Sequence record: PP047755
Reading direction: 5' to 3' (one strand)
Length of the DNA stretch: 64,000 nucleotides
DNA from: Escherichia phage KEP1
In this document: positions 6,190 to 18,927 of the stretch, piece after piece
How the letters are laid out: each line of letters opens with the position of its first letter
How positions within the stretch are numbered: position 1 is the first letter of the stretch
Program-made: the position numbers and the translations under genes
Notes under the pieces: model-generated
Seen by the model: the letters and a program-made list of their open reading frames with translations, nothing else
The model's database searches: none
What the model was told of the DNA's origin: nothing

Positions 6190-7730
6190 ATAAAATTTTA
6201 TCGGTTGTCCCAACCTCTGGGTCACCATCATATGTGAATAAAATATCTACCCTTCTTAACATCCTTCTTAATCTTACTCTCTATATATAGTTATATAGTA
6301 CTATATAGTATCTTAGTAACTATCTAGTGGTCTTAATAGCCCCTCTGTATAGCCCTTCTAAACACTCTTCTAACAAGCCTTCTTAACAACCTATACAATC
6401 ACCTTAACCATACCTTTACACCCTCTTAGAAGCTCCTATACACCTCTTAATCTCTAGGTTAGCTATGTTACCCTCTATAGGTGTTCACTAGGAAATACTA
6501 AGCCTCTATATAGACTGTTTTAACAAACTTAACAGGAATATCTTTACAGACCTTATCTCACAAGGTCTAACACGGTACTAACAAGGTATCTTATAAGCCT
6601 GTTTATGCCTGTATTTTTAAAAGACTGTCTAGGTAATTATTCAGAATTTTAAAATTTTTATAAAATAGGACTATCAAGTCATTTTTTAGGGTCTTTGAAG
6701 GAACTGAAAAATATCTGTCTAGGATGTATATCTGCTTGGTAGCCCTTAACAGCTCCCTTACCATCCCTTTGCAAAATTTTAAAATATCCTTAACAATCTC
6801 TTAACAGCTACTACATCCTCTTAACATCTCTTCAGAGGTCTTAACAGATTCTTAACAGAACTAACAAGGGTGTAACAGTTTCTTAACAGTTGATACATAG
6901 GCTTTACAGAGTCTTAACAGATGACTAACAAGAGCTAAGTAGTTAAATGTTAAGAGTTATTTTGTTAAGATAATTAACAAGTTCCTAACAAGTGTTTAAT
7001 CTTTTTAACAAGCTATTAACATGGTCACTATCTCTTTTCTTATCGTTCCCTCTCTTTCTTAGTGATTCTCTTAACATGCCTCTTAAAAGCTCTCTATAGC
7101 CCCTTATAAGCTCTTTTAAGCCTCTTCCTAGTAGTTACACCCCAACTATACAAACACCTCTTTATAGAGCTTTACAGGAGCTTTTAAGACTATGTCAAAG
7201 ACTCTTACAAGGCTTTTACGTGGTCTTAACAGAGATTTAACAAGGGGCTAACAAGCATAACTATGTAGGGATTGTTAAGAAATTGTTAAGAAAATGTTAA
7301 GGGGGCTAGCATTTACGTAACTTTATAGCCTCTTTTACGTAACTTCAAAGTAACTTAACAGCCCCTATAACATACTTTTTAGAGACTATCAAGGGCTATT
7401 GAGTTATTCACAAGATAGCTAACGAGATGATAAAGCTTACACCCTTATAAGATTCTTTTGAGGCTATAGGAAGCTTTATAAAGGGCTTTTTAGAGTGGGT
7501 TAATGCAATCCCTTAAGTTAGGTTGATAAGGCTGTTATAGAGCTTTATAGAGCGTTTAAATGTGCCATCCCCTTTCTGGGGTTATTGGCTTTTATTTAAG
7601 TTGATTTGATAAGGGGCTATAGAGTAAGCTATAGAGTTATTGCTTTTAAGGTACGAGATAGATTCTGTCGAATTAGTGGGATAGATTCTGGAAAGGGAAG
7701 GAAAGGGATTGTATAGAGATTTGATAAGAC
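6190..7730. repeat. 1.5 kb non-coding region dense in short dispersed repeats (CTTAACA / TGTTAAG, CTATAGAG, ATATAGT)
   Basis: No ORF of 60 aa or more on either strand; about 18 CTTAACA-like copies including 7 within 6790-6900 and an inverted cluster GTTAAGAAATTGTTAAGAAAATGTTAAGG at 7270-7300. Confidence 0.75.
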
Positions 7731-8045: not shown

Positions 8046-8110
8046 TTTTGAATCTCCTAGTTTAAGGTATTTATCTAGTGGGAGGTTATTACCTCCCGTT
8101 GATTAGTAAT
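8046..8110 (-). promoter_or_regulatory. cassette element A1: hairpin GGGAGGT-AATA-ACCTCCC plus conserved 5'UTR and ribosome-binding site
   Basis: Minus strand reads ATCAACGG-hairpin-CACTAGATAAATACCTTAAACTAGGAGATTCAAAA-ATG; one of 13 related copies. Confidence 0.7.
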
Positions 8111-8136
8111 TTACTGCATGTTGGCGTAGGTTGCAA
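8108..8136 (-). promoter_or_regulatory. sigma70-like promoter TTGCAA-17-TAAATT for the 7797-8045 cassette gene
   Basis: -35 at 8131-8136, -10 at 8108-8113, 17-bp spacer; the -10 contains the stop codon of the upstream gene. Confidence 0.55.
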
Positions 8137-8374
8137 GTCTTTTTTCGTTGTATTTTGTCAGAATCTCACAAGATAATACATCGTACTTTGTAATAGCGTT
8201 GCCTTTGTCGAGGTCAAAGAATCCGAATGCTTTACCGTCTTTGAATCCGACAACTTCGTAAGATTCTTTAATGATTTCACCATTGAACAAATCACTTTCG
8301 ATACGGTGGAATAGCGCTACATCCTCTTTGTCGGTTGCAATTTGTAAAAGTGTGGTCAGTTCGACGTGTTCCAT
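8111..8374 (-). CDS. hypothetical protein (87 aa), cassette gene
   Basis: ORF preceded by conserved 5'UTR element. Confidence 0.65.
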   Translation of the reverse strand: MEHVELTTLLQIATDKEDVALFHRIESDLFNGEIIKESYEVVGFKDGKAFGFFDLDKGNAITKYDVLSCEILTKYNEKRLATYANMQ

Positions 8375-8435
8375 TTTGAATCTCCAGTTTAGGATTTTAT
8401 TTAGTGGGGGAGGTCATCCCCCGTTGATTGACAAT
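8375..8435 (-). promoter_or_regulatory. cassette element A2: hairpin GGGGGA..TCCCCC plus conserved 5'UTR and ribosome-binding site
   Basis: TTGAATCTCCAGTTTAGGATTTTATTTAGTGGGGGAGGTCATCCCCCGTTGATTG on plus strand. Confidence 0.7.
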
Positions 8436-8461
8436 TTACAGACTTTTGATTGTCTCGTCAA
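8433..8461 (-). promoter_or_regulatory. sigma70-like promoter TTGACG-17-TAAATT for the 8111-8374 cassette gene
   Basis: -35 at 8456-8461, -10 at 8433-8438; the -10 overlaps the stop codon of the upstream gene. Confidence 0.55.
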
Positions 8462-8966
8462 TATCTTTTTCAATTTCTCTTAAAGTTTTTTCTAAGTTCT
8501 TGATATTCAGCATTAACCCCTCTCCCAGTGTCTTAGCGTAACCATTTGGGCGATGGTCATAAAGCTCGATTTCTTCCACTTCGTAAAGGCTGACATTGAA
8601 GCCCCCTACCCCGTAGGCTGTGGATGAAGTGCCTTCCGGTGCTTTGTAGTATTTATTGAGATTCTTTAAAGAGCGCTCGTAAGCCATACGATAACCGTTT
8701 AACACTGTTTTGGTGCAATCACGTACACTTTCACACTGTGCCGCATACTTTTCTAAGAACAGCGGGAGGAGTTCCGCTACCGCTTGCATGAAGTGACGAA
8801 CAACGAAAGTAGACATATTACGGCGGTGAATGTAGAAAACACCCGTATCAGATTTAGTGATAGTTGCGAAATGTTCACCATTGCAACGGAATTCATAGGT
8901 ATCTTTTACAGGCTTGGACATTACACGATTTGAACGAATGTAATTGATTGCTTGAAACTTGTTCAT
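8436..8966 (-). CDS. hypothetical protein (176 aa), cassette gene
   Basis: ORF preceded by conserved 5'UTR element. Confidence 0.65.
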   Translation of the reverse strand: MNKFQAINYIRSNRVMSKPVKDTYEFRCNGEHFATITKSDTGVFYIHRRNMSTFVVRHFMQAVAELLPLFLEKYAAQCESVRDCTKTVLNGYRMAYERSLKNLNKYYKAPEGTSSTAYGVGGFNVSLYEVEEIELYDHRPNGYAKTLGEGLMLNIKNLEKTLREIEKDIDETIKSL

Positions 8967-9035
8967 TTTGAATCTCCAGTTTAGGATTTTATTTAGTGGG
9001 GGAGGTCATCCCCCGTTGATTAGTAATTTACTTGT
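8967..9035 (-). promoter_or_regulatory. cassette element A3
   Basis: Near-identical to A2; upstream TTGCAA-17-TAAATT promoter-like motif. Confidence 0.7.
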
Positions 9036-9182
9036 TTTAATTTGTCTTTGCAAGCAATTTTTTAAGTTTATCTATAAAGAATCTTTTAAGTGAATCCCTT
9101 TTAGATAAACCCCCTCGAACAAATGTACTATTGTCAAGGGGTATCGTCAAGTAATTTTTTAAAGTTTTTTATAAGTTATTGA

Positions 9183-9524
9183 TTAACTGATGAATATTTT
9201 TTCAGGTTTTACATAACTGATACGCTGGCTTTTTAGCAAGTCATCCCAGATTAGCGCGGCAATGTGAGAATAGCCGGATTCACGTAAAAGCTTCATTGTT
9301 TTACTTCTCGTTTCAAAACGGCTTGCGTAGTATTCACTGTTCAAGGTCGTTTTGTTCCCTTCGTTATCTGTATGGATGATTTGCATCACTTGAAAGGGGC
9401 TTACATCCTCGCCTTTGTTCCACTGCTCAAAGTATTTTAGGCACTGCATAGGTGACATCTTATCACTAACCTGAGTTGACCAAGATGAATTCTCTTTATC
9501 GGTAATTACAGTTACATAAGCCAT
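9183..9524 (-). CDS. hypothetical protein (113 aa), cassette gene
   Basis: ORF preceded by conserved 5'UTR element. Confidence 0.65.
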   Translation of the reverse strand: MAYVTVITDKENSSWSTQVSDKMSPMQCLKYFEQWNKGEDVSPFQVMQIIHTDNEGNKTTLNSEYYASRFETRSKTMKLLRESGYSHIAALIWDDLLKSQRISYVKPEKIFIS

Positions 9525-9613
9525 TTTGAATCTCCTAGTTTAAGGATTTTACTTAGTAGGGAGGTTGTTGCCTCCCCGTTGATTGACACTCTACAAGCTT
9601 TTATCAGGCTTGT
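9525..9613 (-). promoter_or_regulatory. cassette element A4
   Basis: TTGAATCTCCTAGTTTAAGG..GGGAGGTTGTTGCCTCCCCGTTGATTG on plus strand. Confidence 0.7.
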
Positions 9614-9847
9614 CTAGTCTTTTTCAATGATAATTTCATATTGACCATCAACACTATCAAAATAAATGCCGTCTTCATCTTCTGTCTTAAAGTAGCATTG
9701 TATGTCATCACTGGCGGGATAGTCTTGTCTTGCTATCTGACAAACTTGAATGGCATTTTCTTTACTTCCTGTGAACTCCTCAAGCCCTTTAAAATCGCAT
9801 GAATGGCCGTTACAAATGGAAAGGATGAGATAAATGGTTGTAAGCAT
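9614..9847 (-). CDS. hypothetical small protein with N-terminal hydrophobic/signal-like segment (77 aa)
   Basis: MLTTIYLILSICNGHSC N-terminus; lacks the conserved cassette 5'UTR. Confidence 0.55.
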   Translation of the reverse strand: MLTTIYLILSICNGHSCDFKGLEEFTGSKENAIQVCQIARQDYPASDDIQCYFKTEDEDGIYFDSVDGQYEIIIEKD

Positions 9848-9913
9848 GATTTAAGCCCTCTAAAAGCCCCTACAAGGGGCTGATTAGTGTTTATAAGGTG
9901 ATTGCATAGGTTT

Positions 9914-10456
9914 TTAGAAAAAGCTCTTTAAATCCTCTTCTGCAATGTTTCCTGTCAGTGTATCCATGATGTCACAAAAAACCTGAATACTGTCTGAATG
10001 TTGAACACTTTTAGCGAGAAGCTCCAGAGACTCATTAAGATAGTTTAAATTTGGGTTATCCAATGAAGGAAGACAAAAAGGTGAATACATAGCGTTAAAC
10101 TCTGTTGTATAGACCTTTTTAATCCAATTTACATCAAAGTACTCTGTAAAACTTGCTACACTCGACATATTATCACAAGAATAATCATCATTTAGCTCAT
10201 CCTCTGGAATATCTAGTTCTAAGATAACAATATTTTGGGTTTTCATCTGGAAAGCTGCGGTGATAGTGGCATTTCCTAGAGCTTGTTGGATACCTTCTGA
10301 TGCTATTTCTTCCTCATCGTCGCCATAGATTTTATTTTCTGGATACACGTAAAAATTGCCGTCCATATCCGAACAATTCCATGCGCCTGATGGTTTATCA
10401 CCGTTATTAATCAGGTTGATGAAGTTTTCTTGAGTAGTACCGTGAAAGCATTTCAT
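9914..10456 (-). CDS. hypothetical acidic protein (180 aa), cassette gene
   Basis: ORF preceded by type B cassette element; terminator-like hairpin AGCCCCT-ACA-AGGGGCT downstream at 9865-9881. Confidence 0.65.
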   Translation of the reverse strand: MKCFHGTTQENFINLINNGDKPSGAWNCSDMDGNFYVYPENKIYGDDEEEIASEGIQQALGNATITAAFQMKTQNIVILELDIPEDELNDDYSCDNMSSVASFTEYFDVNWIKKVYTTEFNAMYSPFCLPSLDNPNLNYLNESLELLAKSVQHSDSIQVFCDIMDTLTGNIAEEDLKSFF

Positions 10457-10548
10457 TTTTGAATCTCCAGTTTAGGATTTAGTGGTAAAGCTCTTTATCT
10501 GGGGCTTACTTTATCGAACTATAAGCCCCCTGTAAAGTACTTTATCAG
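10457..10548 (-). promoter_or_regulatory. cassette element B1: long hairpin GGGGCTTA..TAAGCCCC preceded by TTTACA, plus conserved 5'UTR and ribosome-binding site
   Basis: Minus strand TTTACA-GGGGGCTTATAGTTCGATAAAGTAAGCCCC-AGATAAAGAGCTTTACCACTAAATCCTAAACTGGAGATTCAAAA-ATG. Confidence 0.7.
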
Positions 10549-10746
10549 TTAATTTTTGACAACTTTTAAAACTGCAAGATAACCTAAGCAATAAGAATCA
10601 CCGAAGAGAGTTCTACCCATGAAAGAATCCTCTTTAATATCCTTTGCAGTAACAGTTTTCTCTACGCCGTGGGAAAGGACTACATCACCAACTTTGATGT
10701 CTTTGATGTGTGTTGTTTCAATGTTTAAGCCGTTAATAATAGCCAT
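10549..10746 (-). CDS. hypothetical protein (65 aa), cassette gene
   Basis: ORF preceded by conserved 5'UTR element. Confidence 0.6.
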   Translation of the reverse strand: MAIINGLNIETTHIKDIKVGDVVLSHGVEKTVTAKDIKEDSFMGRTLFGDSYCLGYLAVLKVVKN

Positions 10747-10850
10747 TTTTGAATCTCCTAGTTTAAGGACTTTACTTAGTGGGGAAGGTCATTCCCTCCC
10801 CCGTTGATGAGTAATTTACTTGTTTTAAAAACCAAAATCAAGAGGAATTT
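10747..10850 (-). promoter_or_regulatory. cassette element A5 with TTGATT-17-TAAATT promoter-like motif
   Basis: Conserved 5'UTR, GGGGAAGG..CCCTCCCC imperfect inverted repeat. Confidence 0.65.
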
Positions 10851-11255
10851 TTATAGTTCTGCGTAAATTGCGTCACAGATATCACGGAAATCATGATTTG
10901 TTAAATTACGTTGCAACCATGTTGCAAAAAAGTCAGCGATTGCAAAATTTGCGTCATACTCGACAGATAGCCACACTTTCACGGCAAAACGAAACATCTT
11001 TAAATCAAGCTCTTTATTCATTATCTTTGATTTGCCTAACATGTCAGCCATTTCATATTGTGCACCGTCTAGCGTGATACCTGCTGCAACGTCAGCCAAT
11101 GAGTTTTTTACACTTTCAACGTCTAAGATAACACTTTGAATCTTCCCGATAATATTGTGCAATGTCTCATCAGGTGCTGATGATGTAATAACATTAATCC
11201 GGTTAACGGTTAAACGTGCTTTTAAGATTGATAACTCACGGTTATTAATAGTCAT
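10851..11255 (-). CDS. hypothetical protein (134 aa), cassette gene
   Basis: ORF preceded by type B element. Confidence 0.65.
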   Translation of the reverse strand: MTINNRELSILKARLTVNRINVITSSAPDETLHNIIGKIQSVILDVESVKNSLADVAAGITLDGAQYEMADMLGKSKIMNKELDLKMFRFAVKVWLSVEYDANFAIADFFATWLQRNLTNHDFRDICDAIYAEL

Positions 11256-11340
11256 TTTAGAATCTCCAATTTAGGATTTAGTGGTAAAGCTCTTTATCTG
11301 GGGCTTACTTTATCGAACTATAAGCCCCTTGTAAAGTACT
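11256..11340 (-). promoter_or_regulatory. cassette element B2
   Basis: Near-identical to B1. Confidence 0.7.
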
Positions 11341-11613
11341 TTATACTAAATGCAGCTTTTTACCTTTTACTATGATGTAACTTGATGCGCTATTGCCGCA
11401 CACATCTTGATAAATTCTGCGCAAACGGCCTTCGTAGTGGACTTTCCAGCTAGTTGGAATCTTTTTCCCGTATCCGGTAGCAGTTTTTTGGAGTCCTGCT
11501 ACTTGCCAATCTAAGATATGTTGCTCAGCTTGTAAATCCTCAAAGTGCATCACACCATCAACATAGTGACGTAGAGTGACATTTAAAGTACGACCGTTGT
11601 TAGTAGTATACAT
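11341..11613 (-). CDS. hypothetical protein (90 aa), cassette gene
   Basis: ORF preceded by truncated A-type element at 11614-11640. Confidence 0.65.
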   Translation of the reverse strand: MYTTNNGRTLNVTLRHYVDGVMHFEDLQAEQHILDWQVAGLQKTATGYGKKIPTSWKVHYEGRLRRIYQDVCGNSASSYIIVKGKKLHLV

Positions 11614-11640
11614 TTTTGAATCTCCTAGTTTAAGGCTTAT
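11614..11640 (-). promoter_or_regulatory. truncated cassette element (ribosome-binding site/5'UTR part only)
   Basis: TTTTTGAATCTCCTAGTTTAAGG without the hairpin. Confidence 0.55.
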
Positions 11641-11796
11641 TTTGACAGTTCACTAATTAAGACATCAAAGATTATATCATTATCTGCTACAGTTGCAACA
11701 CCAGTGATATAATCAATTTCTAAGATAACAACAACTTTCGTACATAAACCGTCATCTATATCATTCCAGACAACTTTATCACCTGCACAAAACATT
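11641..11796 (-). pseudogene. possible gene remnant: full cassette 5'UTR and ATG at 11794 but only a 12-codon frame
   Basis: ATG preceded by conserved GGAGACTCAAAAAA context; frame MFCAGDKVVWNV then stop. Confidence 0.35.
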
Positions 11797-11885
11797 TTTT
11801 GAGTCTCCTAGTTTAAGGACTTTATTTAGTAGGGAGGTTATTGCCTCCCCGTTGATGTGTAATTTAATCTATCTAAAAATCAGTG
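11797..11885 (-). promoter_or_regulatory. cassette element A6
   Basis: TTTTTTGAGTCTCCTAGTTTAAGG..GGGAGGTTATTGCCTCCCCGTTGATG. Confidence 0.65.
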
Positions 11886-12218
11886 TCAACAGTTTTGTTT
11901 TCGTTTGCTCAATTCTTGAACAATTACAGCGTAGTAGTCTTTTAAGTCACTGATATTTAAAGCATTTATCAGAGAATTATAATCATTGACTAACTGGAAA
12001 TCATCCTTGAAGATGTCACTTATCTGATAGGTTTTCGCTTTGAATCTGAAGCTCATCTCTAGCCGCTTTATTTGCTCATCACTGAGACGCCCTAGAAAGC
12101 TCTCTACAAGGTTATTGCTAACCTGCTGTGTGATTGCCTTATTTGCTAGATTATAGGCTTTATATGCCTTATATAGCGCGAAAATGGCAATAATTGCAGT
12201 GATACCAGTCATTAACAT
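11886..12218 (-). CDS. hypothetical protein with N-terminal transmembrane helix (110 aa)
   Basis: MLMTGITAIIAIFALYKAY hydrophobic N-terminus. Confidence 0.6.
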   Translation of the reverse strand: MLMTGITAIIAIFALYKAYKAYNLANKAITQQVSNNLVESFLGRLSDEQIKRLEMSFRFKAKTYQISDIFKDDFQLVNDYNSLINALNISDLKDYYAVIVQELSKRKQNC

Positions 12219-12508
12219 GGTGTTTCCTCTTTACGTGATACTTTGCCATTTACAGTTATCTCATAAGATTCTAATAAATCGCTTTTAGACTTTACAGGGC
12301 TTTTAAAAGTATCATCACAAACATTGACTTGCAATACAGGTTTTTTATACTCCCTGCAACTATTCCATAAGCAAATCACTACACGACGGCCTTTGATTTT
12401 TCCGTGTAACCATTCCATAACATCATGACTATTCCTTGATGTTTCAATAAAATCAATTTTGTTGAGTAACTTGCTTAGATTTTCACGGATTTTATTTGAT
12501 AATTTCAT
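12212..12508 (-). CDS. hypothetical protein (98 aa), cassette gene
   Basis: ORF preceded by type B element. Confidence 0.6.
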   Translation of the reverse strand: MKLSNKIRENLSKLLNKIDFIETSRNSHDVMEWLHGKIKGRRVVICLWNSCREYKKPVLQVNVCDDTFKSPVKSKSDLLESYEITVNGKVSRKEETPC

Positions 12509-12596
12509 TTTTGAATCTCCAGTTTAGGATTTAGTGGTAAAGCTCTTTATCTGGGGCTATCTTAACAGCTTGATAACCCCATGTAAAGAAATCTAT
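12509..12596 (-). promoter_or_regulatory. cassette element B3 (stem changed on both strands: GGGGTTATC..GATAGCCCC)
   Basis: Same flanks as B1 but stem sequence co-varies, loop differs. Confidence 0.7.
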
Positions 12597-13109
12597 TTAG
12601 TCCTTAAAGATATTCATCACTGAATCTTTTAATGCTTCCAAGCGTTCTAATACTTCAGATTCTGCGTCTGAATTGTTCACTTCCTCTTTTAGTCTGCTAT
12701 CTAAATCATCGCCGTCACTGTAGCACCAATCGAAAGCATAACCAATATAAAAACTGTCTAAAACCGTGCTACCGTTTGCATCTACAACTTTCGCGGCAAT
12801 GTTGTACTCTGAAGCCTCTAAATCTCTTTCTAATTCTTTCTGTAAACTGATGTAAGCCTCTTTTGATGGATTTTCCCGGCCTTGTTTTGCATAGTCACTC
12901 GAAAGCTGTTTAAGGCTGTAATGTAAAGGGATTGCATATTTAAATTCATTATGCTGGCAGTTAGGATTTTTAACAGTCACACCGCCTTGATGGTCATCTG
13001 TAAATTCCCAATTATCAAGATTATGGCTTGCTTCAAAGCAATTAACAGCTTCATAGATAATGGTGAATTTTTCTTTTACAACTTCAAAGGTAGCGTCTAC
13101 AGTTTTCAT
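12597..13109 (-). CDS. hypothetical acidic protein (170 aa), cassette gene
   Basis: ORF preceded by type B element. Confidence 0.65.
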   Translation of the reverse strand: MKTVDATFEVVKEKFTIIYEAVNCFEASHNLDNWEFTDDHQGGVTVKNPNCQHNEFKYAIPLHYSLKQLSSDYAKQGRENPSKEAYISLQKELERDLEASEYNIAAKVVDANGSTVLDSFYIGYAFDWCYSDGDDLDSRLKEEVNNSDAESEVLERLEALKDSVMNIFKD

Positions 13110-13197
13110 TTTTGAATCTCCAGTTTAGGATTTAGTGGTAAAGCTCTTTATCTGGGGCTTAAGATACCAACTTTTAAGCCCCCTGTAAAGTACTTTA
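13110..13197 (-). promoter_or_regulatory. cassette element B4 (stem GGGGCTTAA..TTAAGCCCC, different loop)
   Basis: Conserved flanks, variable loop. Confidence 0.7.
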
Positions 13198-13503
13198 TCA
13201 GTTAATTTCCAGTTTTGCATAGCCTCTCATTGTACGAATGGGGGATGTTAAGGCTACGCGTCTAATATATGCCTTTTTCGTGTATACATTTGTCTTCCCG
13301 ATAGTGTTTACACATGTAAAAAGGTTTATTGGTGAATTTTTTAACTTCAACTGTTTATCAGTCTTCACGCCCCATCTTACAGCAGATTGTTTTCCGTTGT
13401 CAACCACTTTCCCACCTAACTTTTTCGCCATAATGCGAGCGTCATCACGAGTTTTTGCAGGAATTACAACGTTTTTGATAGTAGCCATTTTTAAGTTCTC
13501 CAA
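13198..13503 (-). CDS. hypothetical basic protein (101 aa), cassette gene
   Basis: ORF preceded by type B element. Confidence 0.65.
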   Translation of the reverse strand: MENLKMATIKNVVIPAKTRDDARIMAKKLGGKVVDNGKQSAVRWGVKTDKQLKLKNSPINLFTCVNTIGKTNVYTKKAYIRRVALTSPIRTMRGYAKLEIN

Positions 13504-13576
13504 TTTAGGATTTAGTGGTAAAGCTCTTTATCTGGGGCTTACTTTATCGAACTATAAGCCCCTTGTAAAGTACTTT
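13504..13576 (-). promoter_or_regulatory. cassette element B5
   Basis: Near-identical to B1/B2. Confidence 0.7.
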
Positions 13577-13957
13577 TTATTTAATTTTGAAGATTGTCAC
13601 GTAGCCATCACTGCCGATGATTTGTGATACCCCAGCTTTTTCTACTTGATAGCCCATATTTTCCAGATGATAGATAGCATCGTCATAACCATATGCACCG
13701 CCCTGATAACGTCGCTTATCACATCTTACTAAAACCTTTCCACGTCCTGCCAGTGCATTTAGTACAGCTTTTTCACTTGATAGCATACCATCTATCATGG
13801 TTGCCGTGTAATGGTTGATTTTATTCCCGTTGATATCATACTTGAAATTGAACGAGTGAACAACGATAACGTTACCTTTAAAATTCTCATCAAGTGACTT
13901 CTCCAGTGCGTTGCGAAAGTTGTCTTTATTGATGAATTTAGGTGCACGGTATGCCAT
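13577..13957 (-). CDS. hypothetical protein (126 aa), first cassette gene
   Basis: ORF preceded by A-type element and a strong promoter. Confidence 0.65.
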   Translation of the reverse strand: MAYRAPKFINKDNFRNALEKSLDENFKGNVIVVHSFNFKYDINGNKINHYTATMIDGMLSSEKAVLNALAGRGKVLVRCDKRRYQGGAYGYDDAIYHLENMGYQVEKAGVSQIIGSDGYVTIFKIK

Positions 13958-14023
13958 TTTAGAATCTCCTAGTTTAAGGTTAGTTATTTAGTGGGGAAGG
14001 TTATTCCCTCTCCGTTGATGCAA
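13958..14023 (-). promoter_or_regulatory. cassette element A7 (hairpin plus conserved 5'UTR)
   Basis: TTTTAGAATCTCCTAGTTTAAGG..GGGGAAGGTTATTCCCTCTCCGTTGATG. Confidence 0.65.
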
Positions 14024-14052
14024 ATATTAGATAACCATAGCCAAAGAGTCAA
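14024..14052 (-). promoter_or_regulatory. near-consensus sigma70 promoter TTGACT-17-TAATAT heading the cassette array
   Basis: -35 at 14047-14052 and -10 at 14024-14029 (minus strand), 17-bp spacer, followed by the conserved hairpin/5'UTR. Confidence 0.6.
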
Positions 14053-14219
14053 GAAAAATTTTAAAAATATTTTTGAAAAAAAAAAAACTGTAATGGAACG
14101 GGCGCACGCGACTACCACAAAACAGAACTACAATCAAGAATTATTTTTCAATCCGCTACAAATTTTTCTCTTGACTTTTGGGGAGAGGGGGAGTAAGAGG
14201 GAAAGAGGGGCTTGGCTGG

Positions 14220-14410
14220 CTATCTATAAAAACCTACCTGCACAATTCTAAAATGATTTTTCTTGCCCGACCTGAGCGGGGTCTGCACGTTTTGAAAATG
14301 AAAAAGCTCTTTGGAGATTACCTGCACAATTTGAAAATGAATTTTCTCTTTGGAGTTCAAAATTCTCTCTACAGATTTCTCTACAGAACTCTACCTGCAC
14401 AATCCTAAAA
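14220..14410. repeat. three direct repeats of TACCTGCACAAT-NN-TAAAATGA, plus one degenerate copy, in a 530-bp intergenic region
   Basis: Copies at about 14226, 14318 and 14388; related GCACGTTTTGAAAATGAAAAAGC at about 14285. Confidence 0.6.
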
Positions 14411-14486
14411 TGAAAAAGCCCTCCTTACCTGAAAAATTTAACAGATAAGAAAGGCTTAGCCTATTGTGAATATTCTACAGAGTTTC

Positions 14487-15272
14487 TTAGTTCTTTGCGT
14501 CTAAGAAGGTAGCTTCTTGTGATGAGAAAATTTCCTCGATATCCTCATCAGTTCTTGCATAGATATAAGTATCTGCATCACTGCCAAATGTTACTGCAAT
14601 CCTGTGATTGCTCTTCGACAGGTGGGTAACTAGAGCGTTACTTAGAGACATCTTTTCAACCGGAGGGTTACTTTGATGTATCTTACCTTTTCTTCGTCTG
14701 AAGAGGGTAACTGTATTGTCTGTGAACGTTACTACACCTGCAAAGTATTCCGGTTCACAGTAGTTCTTCCAACCTGAGAGTAACTTGTGGTACATCTCTC
14801 CTTCGTAGACATACAGATAGACATCTGCACTCTTCATCACCTGATTAATGATAACGGTGACGGCTTGAGGGTCTAGTCCACCGATACCTGCACCAATCAT
14901 AGGTAACCCAACTTTCTTCAACTGATTAACTTCACAGTACCTGTTAAGCTGTTTCAAAGATGATTCTAAAGCACTGTATCGGGCATCTTTGCCAGTCTTA
15001 AGCTGAGTGTAAAGGTTAGCTATACGGCCTTGTTTTAAACGTGCTACAGAGAAATTACCTAGTAAGTTCTCACAGGGCTTGTGGCCTATGCCACCTGCAT
15101 ACAGATAAACTTCTGTATCAGTCTCATATGCTTTTGGGTAAAGTTTAGAAATCTTGTCAGCGATACCTGCACCCATTAAATTCATACAGTTGCAACCGTG
15201 ACCAATGACGTCAAACTTACCTTTATCAAATGCGGCAAAGATATCACCATTGATGATTTTTACAATACCCAT
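14487..15272 (-). CDS. macro domain protein, TARG1/OARD1-like (putative ADP-ribosyl hydrolase) with C-terminal domain of unknown function
   Basis: GDIFAAFDKGKFDVIGHGCNCMNLMGAGIA and LPMIGAGIGGLD match the TARG1 signature (GDLF..HCISEDCRMGAGIA, MPRIGCGLD). Confidence 0.7.
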   Translation of the reverse strand: MGIVKIINGDIFAAFDKGKFDVIGHGCNCMNLMGAGIADKISKLYPKAYETDTEVYLYAGGIGHKPCENLLGNFSVARLKQGRIANLYTQLKTGKDARYSALESSLKQLNRYCEVNQLKKVGLPMIGAGIGGLDPQAVTVIINQVMKSADVYLYVYEGEMYHKLLSGWKNYCEPEYFAGVVTFTDNTVTLFRRRKGKIHQSNPPVEKMSLSNALVTHLSKSNHRIAVTFGSDADTYIYARTDEDIEEIFSSQEATFLDAKN

Positions 15273-15473
15273 TTAACATCTCTCCCAAGATTCTTTATCT
15301 TCTGAAGGTTTTACACGTTGTCCTTCATGGTCTACCCAGATACATCCACAACCTTCACAGATTACTGGCATTGCATAGCCAGCTTTAAAGTCATCTTCAG
15401 TGATAAGACCTTTTAAGTCACCTGTATCACGTCCGAACATTTCGATAGCACAATCTTTGCAGAAGTCAGCCAT
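15273..15473 (-). CDS. small Cys-rich protein (66 aa from the MADFCKDC start)
   Basis: CxxC...CEGCGC motifs; ATG overlaps upstream stop (ATGGCTGA). Confidence 0.5.
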   Translation of the reverse strand: MADFCKDCAIEMFGRDTGDLKGLITEDDFKAGYAMPVICEGCGCIWVDHEGQRVKPSEDKESWERC

Positions 15474-15699
15474 GAATAATTGCCTCTTGAATGATGATAC
15501 CTTTACCACAACGATTTTTAAAGTCTTCCAATGGTTCAGAGAAGAAGTCACGGAAATGGTTACTGCACTCACGTTTCATCACCTTCTTGTAAGTTAACAC
15601 ATCTTCTCCTGTAAACGGGACGACTTCATGTCTCCCTTTGAATACTGCTGAACTTACAATCTTACGTGTCTTTTTATCTCTGGCTAGTATTACTTTCAT
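15466..15699 (-). CDS. hypothetical protein (77 aa)
   Basis: ORF in operon. Confidence 0.55.
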   Translation of the reverse strand: MKVILARDKKTRKIVSSAVFKGRHEVVPFTGEDVLTYKKVMKRECSNHFRDFFSEPLEDFKNRCGKGIIIQEAIIHG

Positions 15700-16039
15700 A
15701 GTTTACCTTCTCAGTTAGCTCATATAAATCAACATGCTCAATACTATCAATGTTGATACCAATCTTTTTGAAGCGTTCTATCACTTCGTTGTCAGTCATC
15801 CATATCAGACACCAATGATTGTGGATGGATTCTTCAAGAAGGTCAACACAATCTTTAAAAGTTTTTGTATCACTTCTTGTTCCGACTACTGCGATTGTCC
15901 CATACAACCACTTACCATTACCATAAGATACTTGTGCTACGCCAACTTCTTTATCTTTCTCGTAGTAAACGGCTACAAAGTCTCTTCCATTAATCTGCAT
16001 TTGTAAGTTCCTCTGTTGGTAATTCACCATTTTCAGCAA
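15674..16039 (-). CDS. hypothetical protein (121 aa)
   Basis: ORF in operon. Confidence 0.55.
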   Translation of the reverse strand: MLKMVNYQQRNLQMQINGRDFVAVYYEKDKEVGVAQVSYGNGKWLYGTIAVVGTRSDTKTFKDCVDLLEESIHNHWCLIWMTDNEVIERFKKIGINIDSIEHVDLYELTEKVNYESNTSQR

Positions 16040-18827: not shown

Positions 18828-18927
18828 TGGTTCTCCTGTTTAGTTTATCGTGACAACAATTATACAGCACTCTGCACAAAATACAAATAAAAAAGGCCGC
18901 CGAAGCAGCCTTTTAAGAAATTACTTA

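Follow-up and report, generated by a model that had tools for sequence, protein, structure and literature searches.

The gap between the rIIA-to-macro-domain operon and the small-gene array of this phage carries a single-copy, non-coding array of direct repeats, and comparison with related phages indicates that this element is genuine, that the subfamily has conserved it, and that its sequence is under functional constraint. The explanation that we favor, while holding it to be somewhat short of probable, is that the repeats form a series of sites, comparable to iterons or operators, at which a sequence-specific DNA-binding protein would bind. We infer such binding because the array lies at a unique locus and consists of asymmetric direct repeats with conserved spacing, because selection acts on its primary sequence, and because neither a coding function nor an RNA fold accounts for it. 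A replication origin and a site of transcriptional control or insulation share this tentative standing roughly evenly.

The intergenic gap and its flanking elements

The window (the whole stretch of DNA that was analyzed, 64 kb in length) belongs to Felixounavirus, and its region 13500-15300 matches 239 phage records, nearly all of them Felixounavirus, the closest being Escherichia phages KEP3 and DE17 at 98% identity. The gap spans 529 bp (13958-14486) between the minus-strand genes 13577-13957 and 14487-15272, and all genes around it lie on the minus strand. The gene at 14487-15272 (-) encodes a macro-domain protein, annotated as a 'phosphatase' (PHROG 335; Pfam Macro), and closes a run that opens with rIIA and rIIB in related records. 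The original prediction had described a gap of about 530 bp holding only weak, artefactual open reading frames, and this description stands, as the frames are short, start poorly, and are not conserved between genera.

The rIIA-to-macro-domain operon ends in an intrinsic terminator hairpin at 14416-14457 (-), which forms a 15-pair stem in the minimum-free-energy fold and is followed by the T-run CTTTTTCATTTT, which extends into the first repeat unit (unit A, described below). The wV8, KhF2, and ASO1B records carry a rho-independent terminator annotation at this site, and the L023 homologue was recovered by the terminator scan. On the other side of the repeats, the first promoter of the small-gene array (14024-14099, -) consists of a -35 element TTGACT (14052-14047), a 17-bp spacer, and a -10 element TAATAT (14029-14024); its A/T-rich upstream element contains a T12 run (14076-14087). 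It is annotated as a promoter in ASO1B, and its sequence recurs along the small-gene array. The repeats lie 180-370 bp upstream of it, in keeping with the earlier claim that they stand upstream of the cassette-array promoter, which is confirmed here as a sigma-70-type TTGACT-17-TAATAT at 14052-14024 (-). The repeat motif bears no resemblance to this sequence, and the claim that it differs from the sigma70-like promoters of the array was likewise correct.

A strongly conserved non-coding block at 14100-14180, assigned to neither strand, separates this promoter from a second promoter element placed back to back with it; the block has a nucleotide diversity (pi) of 0.055, and Felixounavirus, Suspvirus, and Mooglevirus all retain it. 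The second element is a candidate divergent promoter directed into the repeats (14171-14199, +), with a -35 element TTGACT (14171-14176), a 17-bp spacer, and a poor -10 element TAAGAG (14194-14199), and its upstream half is an inverted copy of the corresponding half of the array promoter (TTTCTCTTGACTTTTGGG, 14165-14182). In 22 loci, both the -35 element and the 40 bp preceding it are conserved. An alternative allele found in about half of the Felixounavirus loci reads TTGACT-17-TGgTAGCCT, with an extended -10 element, and the corresponding + strand promoter-like element of Kolesnikvirus reads TTGACG-18-TATACT. Such elements point into the array on the + strand in every genus, so that a role as a promoter or at the RNA level is conceivable, and + strand transcription of the array is possible. 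Between the conserved block and the repeats lies a variable tract (14181-14223, +) that is G-rich on the + strand and C-rich on the minus strand, with a pi of 0.338 versus 0.066 in the array. A G4-type pattern, GGGG-N3-GGGGG-N7-GGG-N5-GGGG, overlaps it at 14180-14210 (+), and other Felixounavirus genomes carry a second, unrelated allele of the tract.

Anatomy of the repeat units

The motif as first described, TACCTGCACAAT-NN-KAAAATGA, was searched for over the 64-kb window with up to 3 mismatches, and the expectation was taken from 100 shuffles. It occurs exactly three times, compared with 0.00 expected, at 14235-14256 (0 mismatches), 14319-14340 (1 mismatch; TTGAAAATGA), and 14392-14413 (0 mismatches), each time on the + strand. 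Successive copies start 84 and 73 bp apart, so the prediction of three copies 70-90 bp apart was accurate. A relaxed core, CTGCACRNTNNKAAAATGA, gives 4 matches versus 0.26 expected, a count that none of the shuffles reached, and picks up at 14283-14301 (GGTCTGCACGTTTTGAAAATGA from 14280) the degenerate fourth copy that had also been proposed. One motif look-alike with 2 mismatches lies at 18873-18890. Two points of the earlier description need revision. The 20-bp motif exists, but the repeating unit is longer, at about 37-45 bp; and the copies are found on the strand shown, but the natural reading of the motif is its minus-strand reverse complement, TCATTTTNNRATTGTGCAGGTA, because that is the strand of the surrounding genes. 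In this direction, the motif reads TCATTTT-NN-R-NN-TGTGCAGGTA, and its first copy begins within the terminator T-run.

The anatomy of the unit was derived from the comparison of 39 units from nine genomes. The core is TCATTTY-N6-GTGCA (18 bp), both ends of which are invariant across the 39 units while the middle is variable and A/T-rich, and its half-sites lie about 12 bp apart from center to center, a shape typical of sites read by DNA-binding proteins. A leader, ACTCCAAAGRG, stands in front of the core in Felixounavirus, Suspvirus, and Mooglevirus. Leader and core are separated by five T or five A residues, with T and A alternating from unit to unit in all genera, a conserved alternation for which a protein-binding array offers no explanation.

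The window has four such units of 37-45 bp each, in direct orientation. The core of unit A (TCATTTTAGGATTGTGCA, 14396-14413, -), equivalent to the motif copy at 14392-14413, begins 74 nt past the macro-domain stop codon in the window and 75-79 nt past it in all related loci. Between units A and B is a decayed unit (14341-14395, -), visible as a 12-nt tandem repeat (TCTCTACAGATT / TCTCTACAGAAC on the + strand), which keeps the conserved ACTCCAAAGAG and an AAAAT leading into unit B; its position in Kolesnikvirus is occupied by a still recognizable unit, with spacings of 37/37/39. Unit B (TCATTTTCAAATTGTGCA, 14323-14340, -) corresponds to the motif copy at 14319-14340, unit C (TCATTTTCAAAACGTGCA, 14284-14301, -) to the degenerate fourth copy, and unit D (TCATTTTAGAATTGTGCA, 14239-14256, -) to the motif copy at 14235-14256. 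Copies A, B, and D are expected to lie on one face of the helix, because their spacings of 73 and 84 bp amount to 7.0 and 8.0 helical turns.

Conservation, selection, and distribution

About 30 relatives, representing four genera of Ounavirinae, have the units at fixed offsets. The core starts fall approximately 77/150/189/234 nt past the macro-domain stop codon, with shifts of a few bases at most, as determined from 27 IMG/VR loci of Felixounavirus, Suspvirus, and Mooglevirus retrieved via the macro-domain protein. The original prediction had made the standing of the motif depend in part on its presence in related genomes, and its retention in about 30 of them weighs in its favor. Kolesnikvirus phiEa21-4 has four units with a spacing of 37/37/39 bp. 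When the gap was used as a blastn query, 289 phage records matched, and Kolesnikvirus (Erwinia and Hafnia phages) matched only at 14239-14341, that is, at the repeat segment. Across the four genera, 41/72 columns are invariant in the cores versus 24/109 between the cores (Fisher p = 3e-6), and identity between the window and phiEa21-4 is 81% in the cores and 39% between them.

Nucleotide diversity among 16 Felixounavirus genomes is 0.034 in the motif cores, 0.085 in the rest of the array, and 0.066 in the array as a whole, compared with 0.140 at codon position 3 of the macro-domain gene and 0.030 and 0.021 at its codon positions 1 and 2. The cores thus evolve about four times slower than synonymous sites (0.034 vs 0.140), and these values imply purifying selection on the cores similar to that on positions that determine amino acids.

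Within UAB_Phi87, whose complete genome has 87,061 bp of unique sequence, copies of the motif with at most 1 mismatch are confined to a single locus, and the genome-wide search that had been proposed as a check therefore returns one locus both there and in the window. A pattern of two motif copies was found in none of 185,579 bacterial and archaeal genomes; in IMG/VR it picked out six Ounavirinae contigs, and in metagenomes two Ounavirinae contigs and two unrelated tandem-repeat sequences. A host regulatory site was rejected on the absence of the two-copy pattern from those 185,579 genomes. Compared by eye, the motif also departs from the consensus sites of IHF, Fis, CRP, ArgR, PurR, Cra, LexA, Tus, sigma-54, RfaH-ops, and the marbox.

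Promoter and RNA readings of the units

The original prediction had offered a phage-specific promoter class as an alternative to an operator. This suggestion finds no support, as the motif (at most 1 mismatch; window and UAB_Phi87) is present at one locus only, and a motif that precedes no other gene is not a promoter class. A narrower version, in which the units are weak or activator-dependent promoters arranged in tandem on the + strand, with KAAAAT as the -10 element, antisense to the macro-domain operon, and acting through convergent interference, as an insulator, or by supplying primer RNA, is possible but in our view doubtful. It is consistent with the fact that every core ends in (T/G)AAAAT on the + strand, which matches TATAAT at 4-5/6 positions, and with the presence in phiEa21-4 and L016 of TTGCCA exactly 17 bp upstream in two units, giving 9-10/12 matches; unit B of the window likewise has TTGGAG 16 bp upstream. 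However, a matching -35 element at the proper distance is confined to two Kolesnikvirus units; it is missing or misplaced in most units of three genera, and in all four window units the best one on the + strand matches at only 3/6 positions, with the -10-like KAAAAT present in each. An 8-bp insertion in window unit C relative to Kolesnikvirus lengthens the spacer to 25 bp with the core kept, and 8/39 units have a G at the essential position 2 of the hexamer (TGAAAT). From the mostly absent -35 element, this G, and the unit C insertion, it follows that the conserved feature is the two-part core rather than a promoter architecture. The invariant TGCAC would moreover fall at -22 to -18, in the spacer, which is unconserved in sigma-70 promoters, the + strand has no downstream gene, and the promoter scan detected no sigma-70-type site within 14224-14413 on either strand of the window array.

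A role of the repeats as RNA appears unlikely. It could take the form of an unstructured sponge RNA transcribed on the + strand from the divergent promoter, with four protein- or RNA-binding motifs on the transcript, or of minus-strand read-through in which UCAUUUU(AGAAU) pairs with the translation-initiation region common to the array genes. The first form would be served by the + strand promoter-like element upstream of the array in all genera and by the predicted lack of structure of the + strand RNA, which folds no better than shuffles (z = 0.13), as is often the case for sponge RNAs. In the window, however, the -10 element of that promoter, TAAGAG, lacks the critical final T, and neither the scan nor folding found a terminator for a + strand RNA. 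The second form draws on GGAGATTCWAAAATG, common to thirteen array genes, of which unit D holds a 12-nt inverted copy; yet complementarity to the initiation region is limited to the TCATTTT half of the motif and shows no co-variation in Suspvirus, Mooglevirus, and Kolesnikvirus, and on these grounds an antisense to the translation-initiation region of the array genes was rejected. Units B-D are also poorly placed for minus-strand expression because they lie downstream of a strong terminator, and the invariant GTGCA half is left unaccounted for.

A structured RNA on either strand was rejected, there being no conserved fold, no meaningful covariation, and no credible Rfam match. The minus-strand fold has a z of -2.5, a signal that includes the 15-pair terminator stem, and the consensus folds of eight sequences from four genera reach -9.2 and -3.6 kcal/mol without meaningful covariation; matches to Rfam were at chance level only, and none was credible.

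Position relative to the genome end

For UAB_Phi87 and UAB_69, published work using Bal31 digestion and run-off sequencing defines the terminal repeat, which is 608 bp long in UAB_Phi87 (PMC4837284, PMC11350853 supplements). The published sequences map to window positions 6736-7308, and the array is therefore 7.5-7.7 kb from the physical end. This position raises the prospect that the array is a DNA-entry checkpoint comparable to the injection stop signal (iss) of T5, halting transfer after the end-proximal immediate-early block, which we regard as highly unlikely. If it were so, genome transfer would pause after the end-proximal 7.5 kb, held by a protein on the four units, and two-step delivery would not be peculiar to T5-like siphoviruses but would also occur in a subfamily of myoviruses.

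The array stands at about 8.6% of the approximately 87.7-kb virion DNA from the end versus 7.9% for the first-step-transfer DNA of T5 (10.1101/866236), and the stretch from end to array contains only small genes with one shared promoter-and-leader cassette. The T5 iss consists of untranslated repeats that are conserved more strongly than the adjoining genes, and DnaA boxes have been proposed as a feature of it (10.1101/866236). The array likewise consists of conserved untranslated repeats, its distance from a physical end being, as in T5, about 8% of the genome length; both regions bound an early-gene block, and both are conserved above the neighboring coding DNA. The two differ in that the T5 iss is 1.2-1.7 kb long, lies inside a 10-kb terminal repeat, and is composed of inverted repeats with 8 DnaA boxes (10.1101/866236), whereas the array here (190 bp) is outside a 0.6-kb repeat and has direct repeats, with a likeness to DnaA boxes in one genus only. 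Compared with the DnaA box TT(A/T)TNCACA, the Kolesnikvirus units read cTATGCACA or TTATGCACg, with 1 mismatch, a feature that would suit a checkpoint. However, boxes with 1 mismatch occur at a background of about 3 per kb anyway in this A/T-rich genome, and the window units read cCTGCACA or tCTGCACg, with 3 mismatches; a DnaA-box cluster, which fits Kolesnikvirus only, was accordingly rejected. Two-step transfer has never been reported in Felix-O1-type phages, and the positional resemblance may be a coincidence.

That the repeats instead mark a physical genome end or packaging site is hardly credible. The idea is suggested by records that stop or start in the gap (KhF1, EC106, TH10, and IMG/VR and metagenome contigs) and by a 377-bp terminal overlap in KhF1 that spans 14051-14429. 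The published terminal repeats of UAB_Phi87 and UAB_69 lie elsewhere, as set out above, and the SpeI end fragments of UAB_Phi87 give 4322 + 2819 - 608 = 6533 bp, 35 bp off the 6568-bp fragment of the circular map. The position of the terminal repeat implied by these fragments, about 15225-15868, agrees with its BLAST placement at 15150-15767 (UAB_Phi87). With the published repeat at 6736-7308 and a consistent SpeI fragment, a genome terminus or pac site at the array was rejected. The record ends in the gap are most likely assembly breaks at promoter sequence that recurs along the array, and records beginning or ending there should not be taken as markers of genome ends.

Relics, reading frames, and other repeats

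It is very improbable that the repeats are an artefact or a functionless, neutral relic of local duplications, such as decayed cassette boundaries. The array does adjoin a region of duplicated promoter and 5'-UTR cassettes, and most lineages retain only a decayed unit between A and B. Against this, the cores are kept in four genera even though the flanking DNA cannot be aligned, core diversity is a quarter of synonymous diversity, and positions are fixed within a few bases. Fixed positions, low core pi, and the conservation of cores relative to spacers largely refute neutrality.

Harder still to credit is the proposal that the repeats lie within a small protein gene, be it wV8 gp13, UAB_Phi87 orf49/50, or Michonne gp131. 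Short open reading frames are annotated here in several GenBank records, on either strand, and the 39- and 45-bp spacings hold three window copies in frame. However, the frame of the motif differs among the window, wV8, SUSP1, Michonne, and phiEa21-4, it switches inside SUSP1 (41-bp spacing), a 2-bp deletion breaks it in wV8, and the starts are GTG or TTG without a Shine-Dalgarno sequence. A conserved protein-coding gene over the repeats was rejected, as relatives share no open frame, and the annotated ones (wV8 gp13, UAB_Phi87 orf49/50, and Michonne gp131) are probably spurious.

Two further candidates were set aside: a cluster of back-up intrinsic terminators, as a hairpin precedes unit A only, with none before units B-D or before Kolesnikvirus unit A; and a CRISPR-like mini-array, as the cores are 18-22 nt and non-palindromic, the 'spacers' of 17-55 nt are themselves conserved, and the CRISPR repeat models gave no match to the array.

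A search of the literature for the motif sequence, for the origin or iterons of Felix O1, and for transcription start sites found no description of the element. The Felix O1 genome paper lists other direct repeats (PMC3185647), the repeats annotated in the wV8 record (DR_1 to DR_9) are different ones, with an open reading frame placed over the array there, and the Bas63 knockout screen reports no result for the gap.

A candidate nucleoprotein site and its likeness to known systems

In the protein-binding explanation, the element would be a cis-acting site, present once per genome, in which four direct-repeat units (five in the ancestor) of about 40 bp each carry a two-part 18-bp core. It would act as double-stranded DNA, as a cluster of candidate protein-binding sites, and the bound protein would build a nucleoprotein complex at the junction of the rIIA-to-macro-domain operon and the immediate-early array, adjoining the back-to-back pair of promoter elements. 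The operator-type binding site of the original prediction thus survives in qualified form: an asymmetric repeated core, selection on that core, a non-coding position, and the poor fit of any RNA fold all agree with it, and the units may be regarded as candidate sites. In kind, the element resembles the direct-repeat protein-binding arrays of phage control or origin regions, and a function of that sort is the candidate that its sequence suggests.

Iteron-array origins are exemplified by lambda ori (bound by the O protein), P1 oriR (RepA), and T4 oriE (RepEA/RepEB). With at least 3 direct repeats of a 17-22-bp site, in an intergenic position and at one locus per genome, the array shows the repeat arrangement of an iteron-type origin. 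It resembles these origins in the direct orientation of its repeats, in an asymmetric site of approximately 18-22 bp that occurs once per genome between genes, in its proximity to A/T-rich DNA and promoters, and in being conserved above its surroundings. It differs from classical iterons in spacing, 37-45 bp here versus about 22 bp, and from iteron origins in that no initiator gene lies beside it and in that the only nearby A/T-rich stretch, with its T12 run (14050-14090), is part of the promoter repeated along the small-gene array. The missing initiator gene and the affiliation of the A/T-rich stretch with a recurrent promoter both speak against the origin option, and GC skew shows no inflection at 14.2 kb, being dominated by gene orientation. 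The neighboring genes have no recognizable initiator or DNA-binding domain; they fall in PHROGs families of 'unknown function', with the Macro domain as the only Pfam match, and for this reason a binding protein encoded by these neighbors was rejected.

For the control option, the closest parallels are the operators or multi-site arrays of monomeric, two-headed regulators, such as the MarA/SoxS/Rob boxes or the T4 MotA boxes. The shared features are an asymmetric two-part motif, an A/T-rich spacer, and a location near promoters. The GCAC-to-AAA spacing is 6 here, in contrast to 7 in the marbox, and the MotA box is no fit either. Arrays of the MarA or MotA type also differ from the present one in that it lies 180-370 bp from a clear promoter, a distance that speaks against the operator option, and in that its motif is absent from the other promoters of the genome. 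A further parallel is T7 phi1.1A/1.1B, tandem early promoters that double as origin elements; the units here are similarly tandem, promoter-like, and intergenic beside A/T-rich DNA, but unlike those of T7, most of them lack a usable -35 element.

Felix-O1-type phages are widely used in Salmonella typing, biocontrol, and therapy. According to the Felix O1 genome paper, their temporal regulation is not understood (PMC3185647). Present once per genome throughout the subfamily, at the border of the immediate-early array and the next operon, this non-coding element offers a handle on the replication origin, temporal control, or host takeover of these phages, and its defined 190 bp can serve as a pull-down probe or be targeted for deletion.

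Record ends and genome ends

Several database records start or stop inside the gene-free gap (window 13958-14486) that holds the four repeat units A-D, among them GenBank KT184313 (KhF1), ON210138 (EC106), and MT446388 (TH10), as well as the IMG/VR contigs L025, L026, L034, and L041. KhF1 has a terminal overlap of 377 bp, and EC106 apparently lacks DNA equivalent to window ~13583-14188. Genome termini were considered as the cause of these record ends and rejected in favor of assembly breaks at the repeated promoter, which is how we read them. Judging from homology, the physical ends of the KEP1 genome should lie at window 6736-7308, because this region matches (85% identity over 618 bp) the direct terminal repeat of the Felixounavirus phages UAB_69 and UAB_Phi87, which was determined by experiment. 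Perfect DnaA boxes (TTATTCACA) flank the terminal-repeat homologue at window 6233 (minus strand) and 7404 (plus strand). The UAB_Phi87 record itself (JN225449) has a 542-bp terminal overlap close to a tRNA cluster, and the published terminal repeat maps elsewhere in that record, to 15150-15767.

Repeat units and adjoining sequences

The five bases that precede successive repeat cores (window 14224-14417) switch between T-runs and A-runs, with CTTTTT at unit A, GAAAAT at B, CTTTTT at C, and GAAAAA at D, and this alternation is preserved in all four genera compared. Every unit in Kolesnikvirus, the Erwinia-phage genus (phiEa21-4, L011 1147-1295; L016), contains a DnaA box with one mismatch, cTATGCACA in three cases and TTATGCACg in one, and two of these units are also good sigma-70-like promoters on the plus strand (TTGCCA-17-TAAAAT and TTGCCA-17-GAAAAT). 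Beside the KEP1 repeats, a plus-strand G-rich tract (window 14181-14223) overlaps a canonical G-quadruplex pattern at 14180-14210. Felixounavirus genomes have two alleles at this position that are unrelated to each other, and the G-rich tract is one of them; the other (e.g., L021, L023, and L054) places an extended -10, TGgTAGCCT, after the same TTGACT, the -35 of a candidate promoter pointing into the repeats.

Public annotations place short ORFs over the array, namely wV8 gene 13 (L001 3727-3891), Phi87_49/50 (L009 22010-22325), and Michonne131 (L014 1386-1574). Their strands and frames differ, and they are probably not real genes. An isolated minus-strand look-alike of the motif, TTATTTGTATTTTGTGCA, lies at window 18873-18890, immediately past the terminator downstream of rIIB; 9 bp beyond it is TATAAT, followed by the next gene, and the look-alike is found in UAB_Phi87 as well.

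Organization of the small-gene array

A near-identical translation-initiation region, TAAACTGGAGATTCWAAAATG, is common to 13 small genes on the minus strand (window 8057-13969), and repeated promoters are also present across this array. Unit D (14239-14256) carries a 12-nt inverted copy of the small-gene leader and start codon (ATTCTAAAATGA). The small-gene array is made up of a single promoter-and-leader cassette set before different genes.
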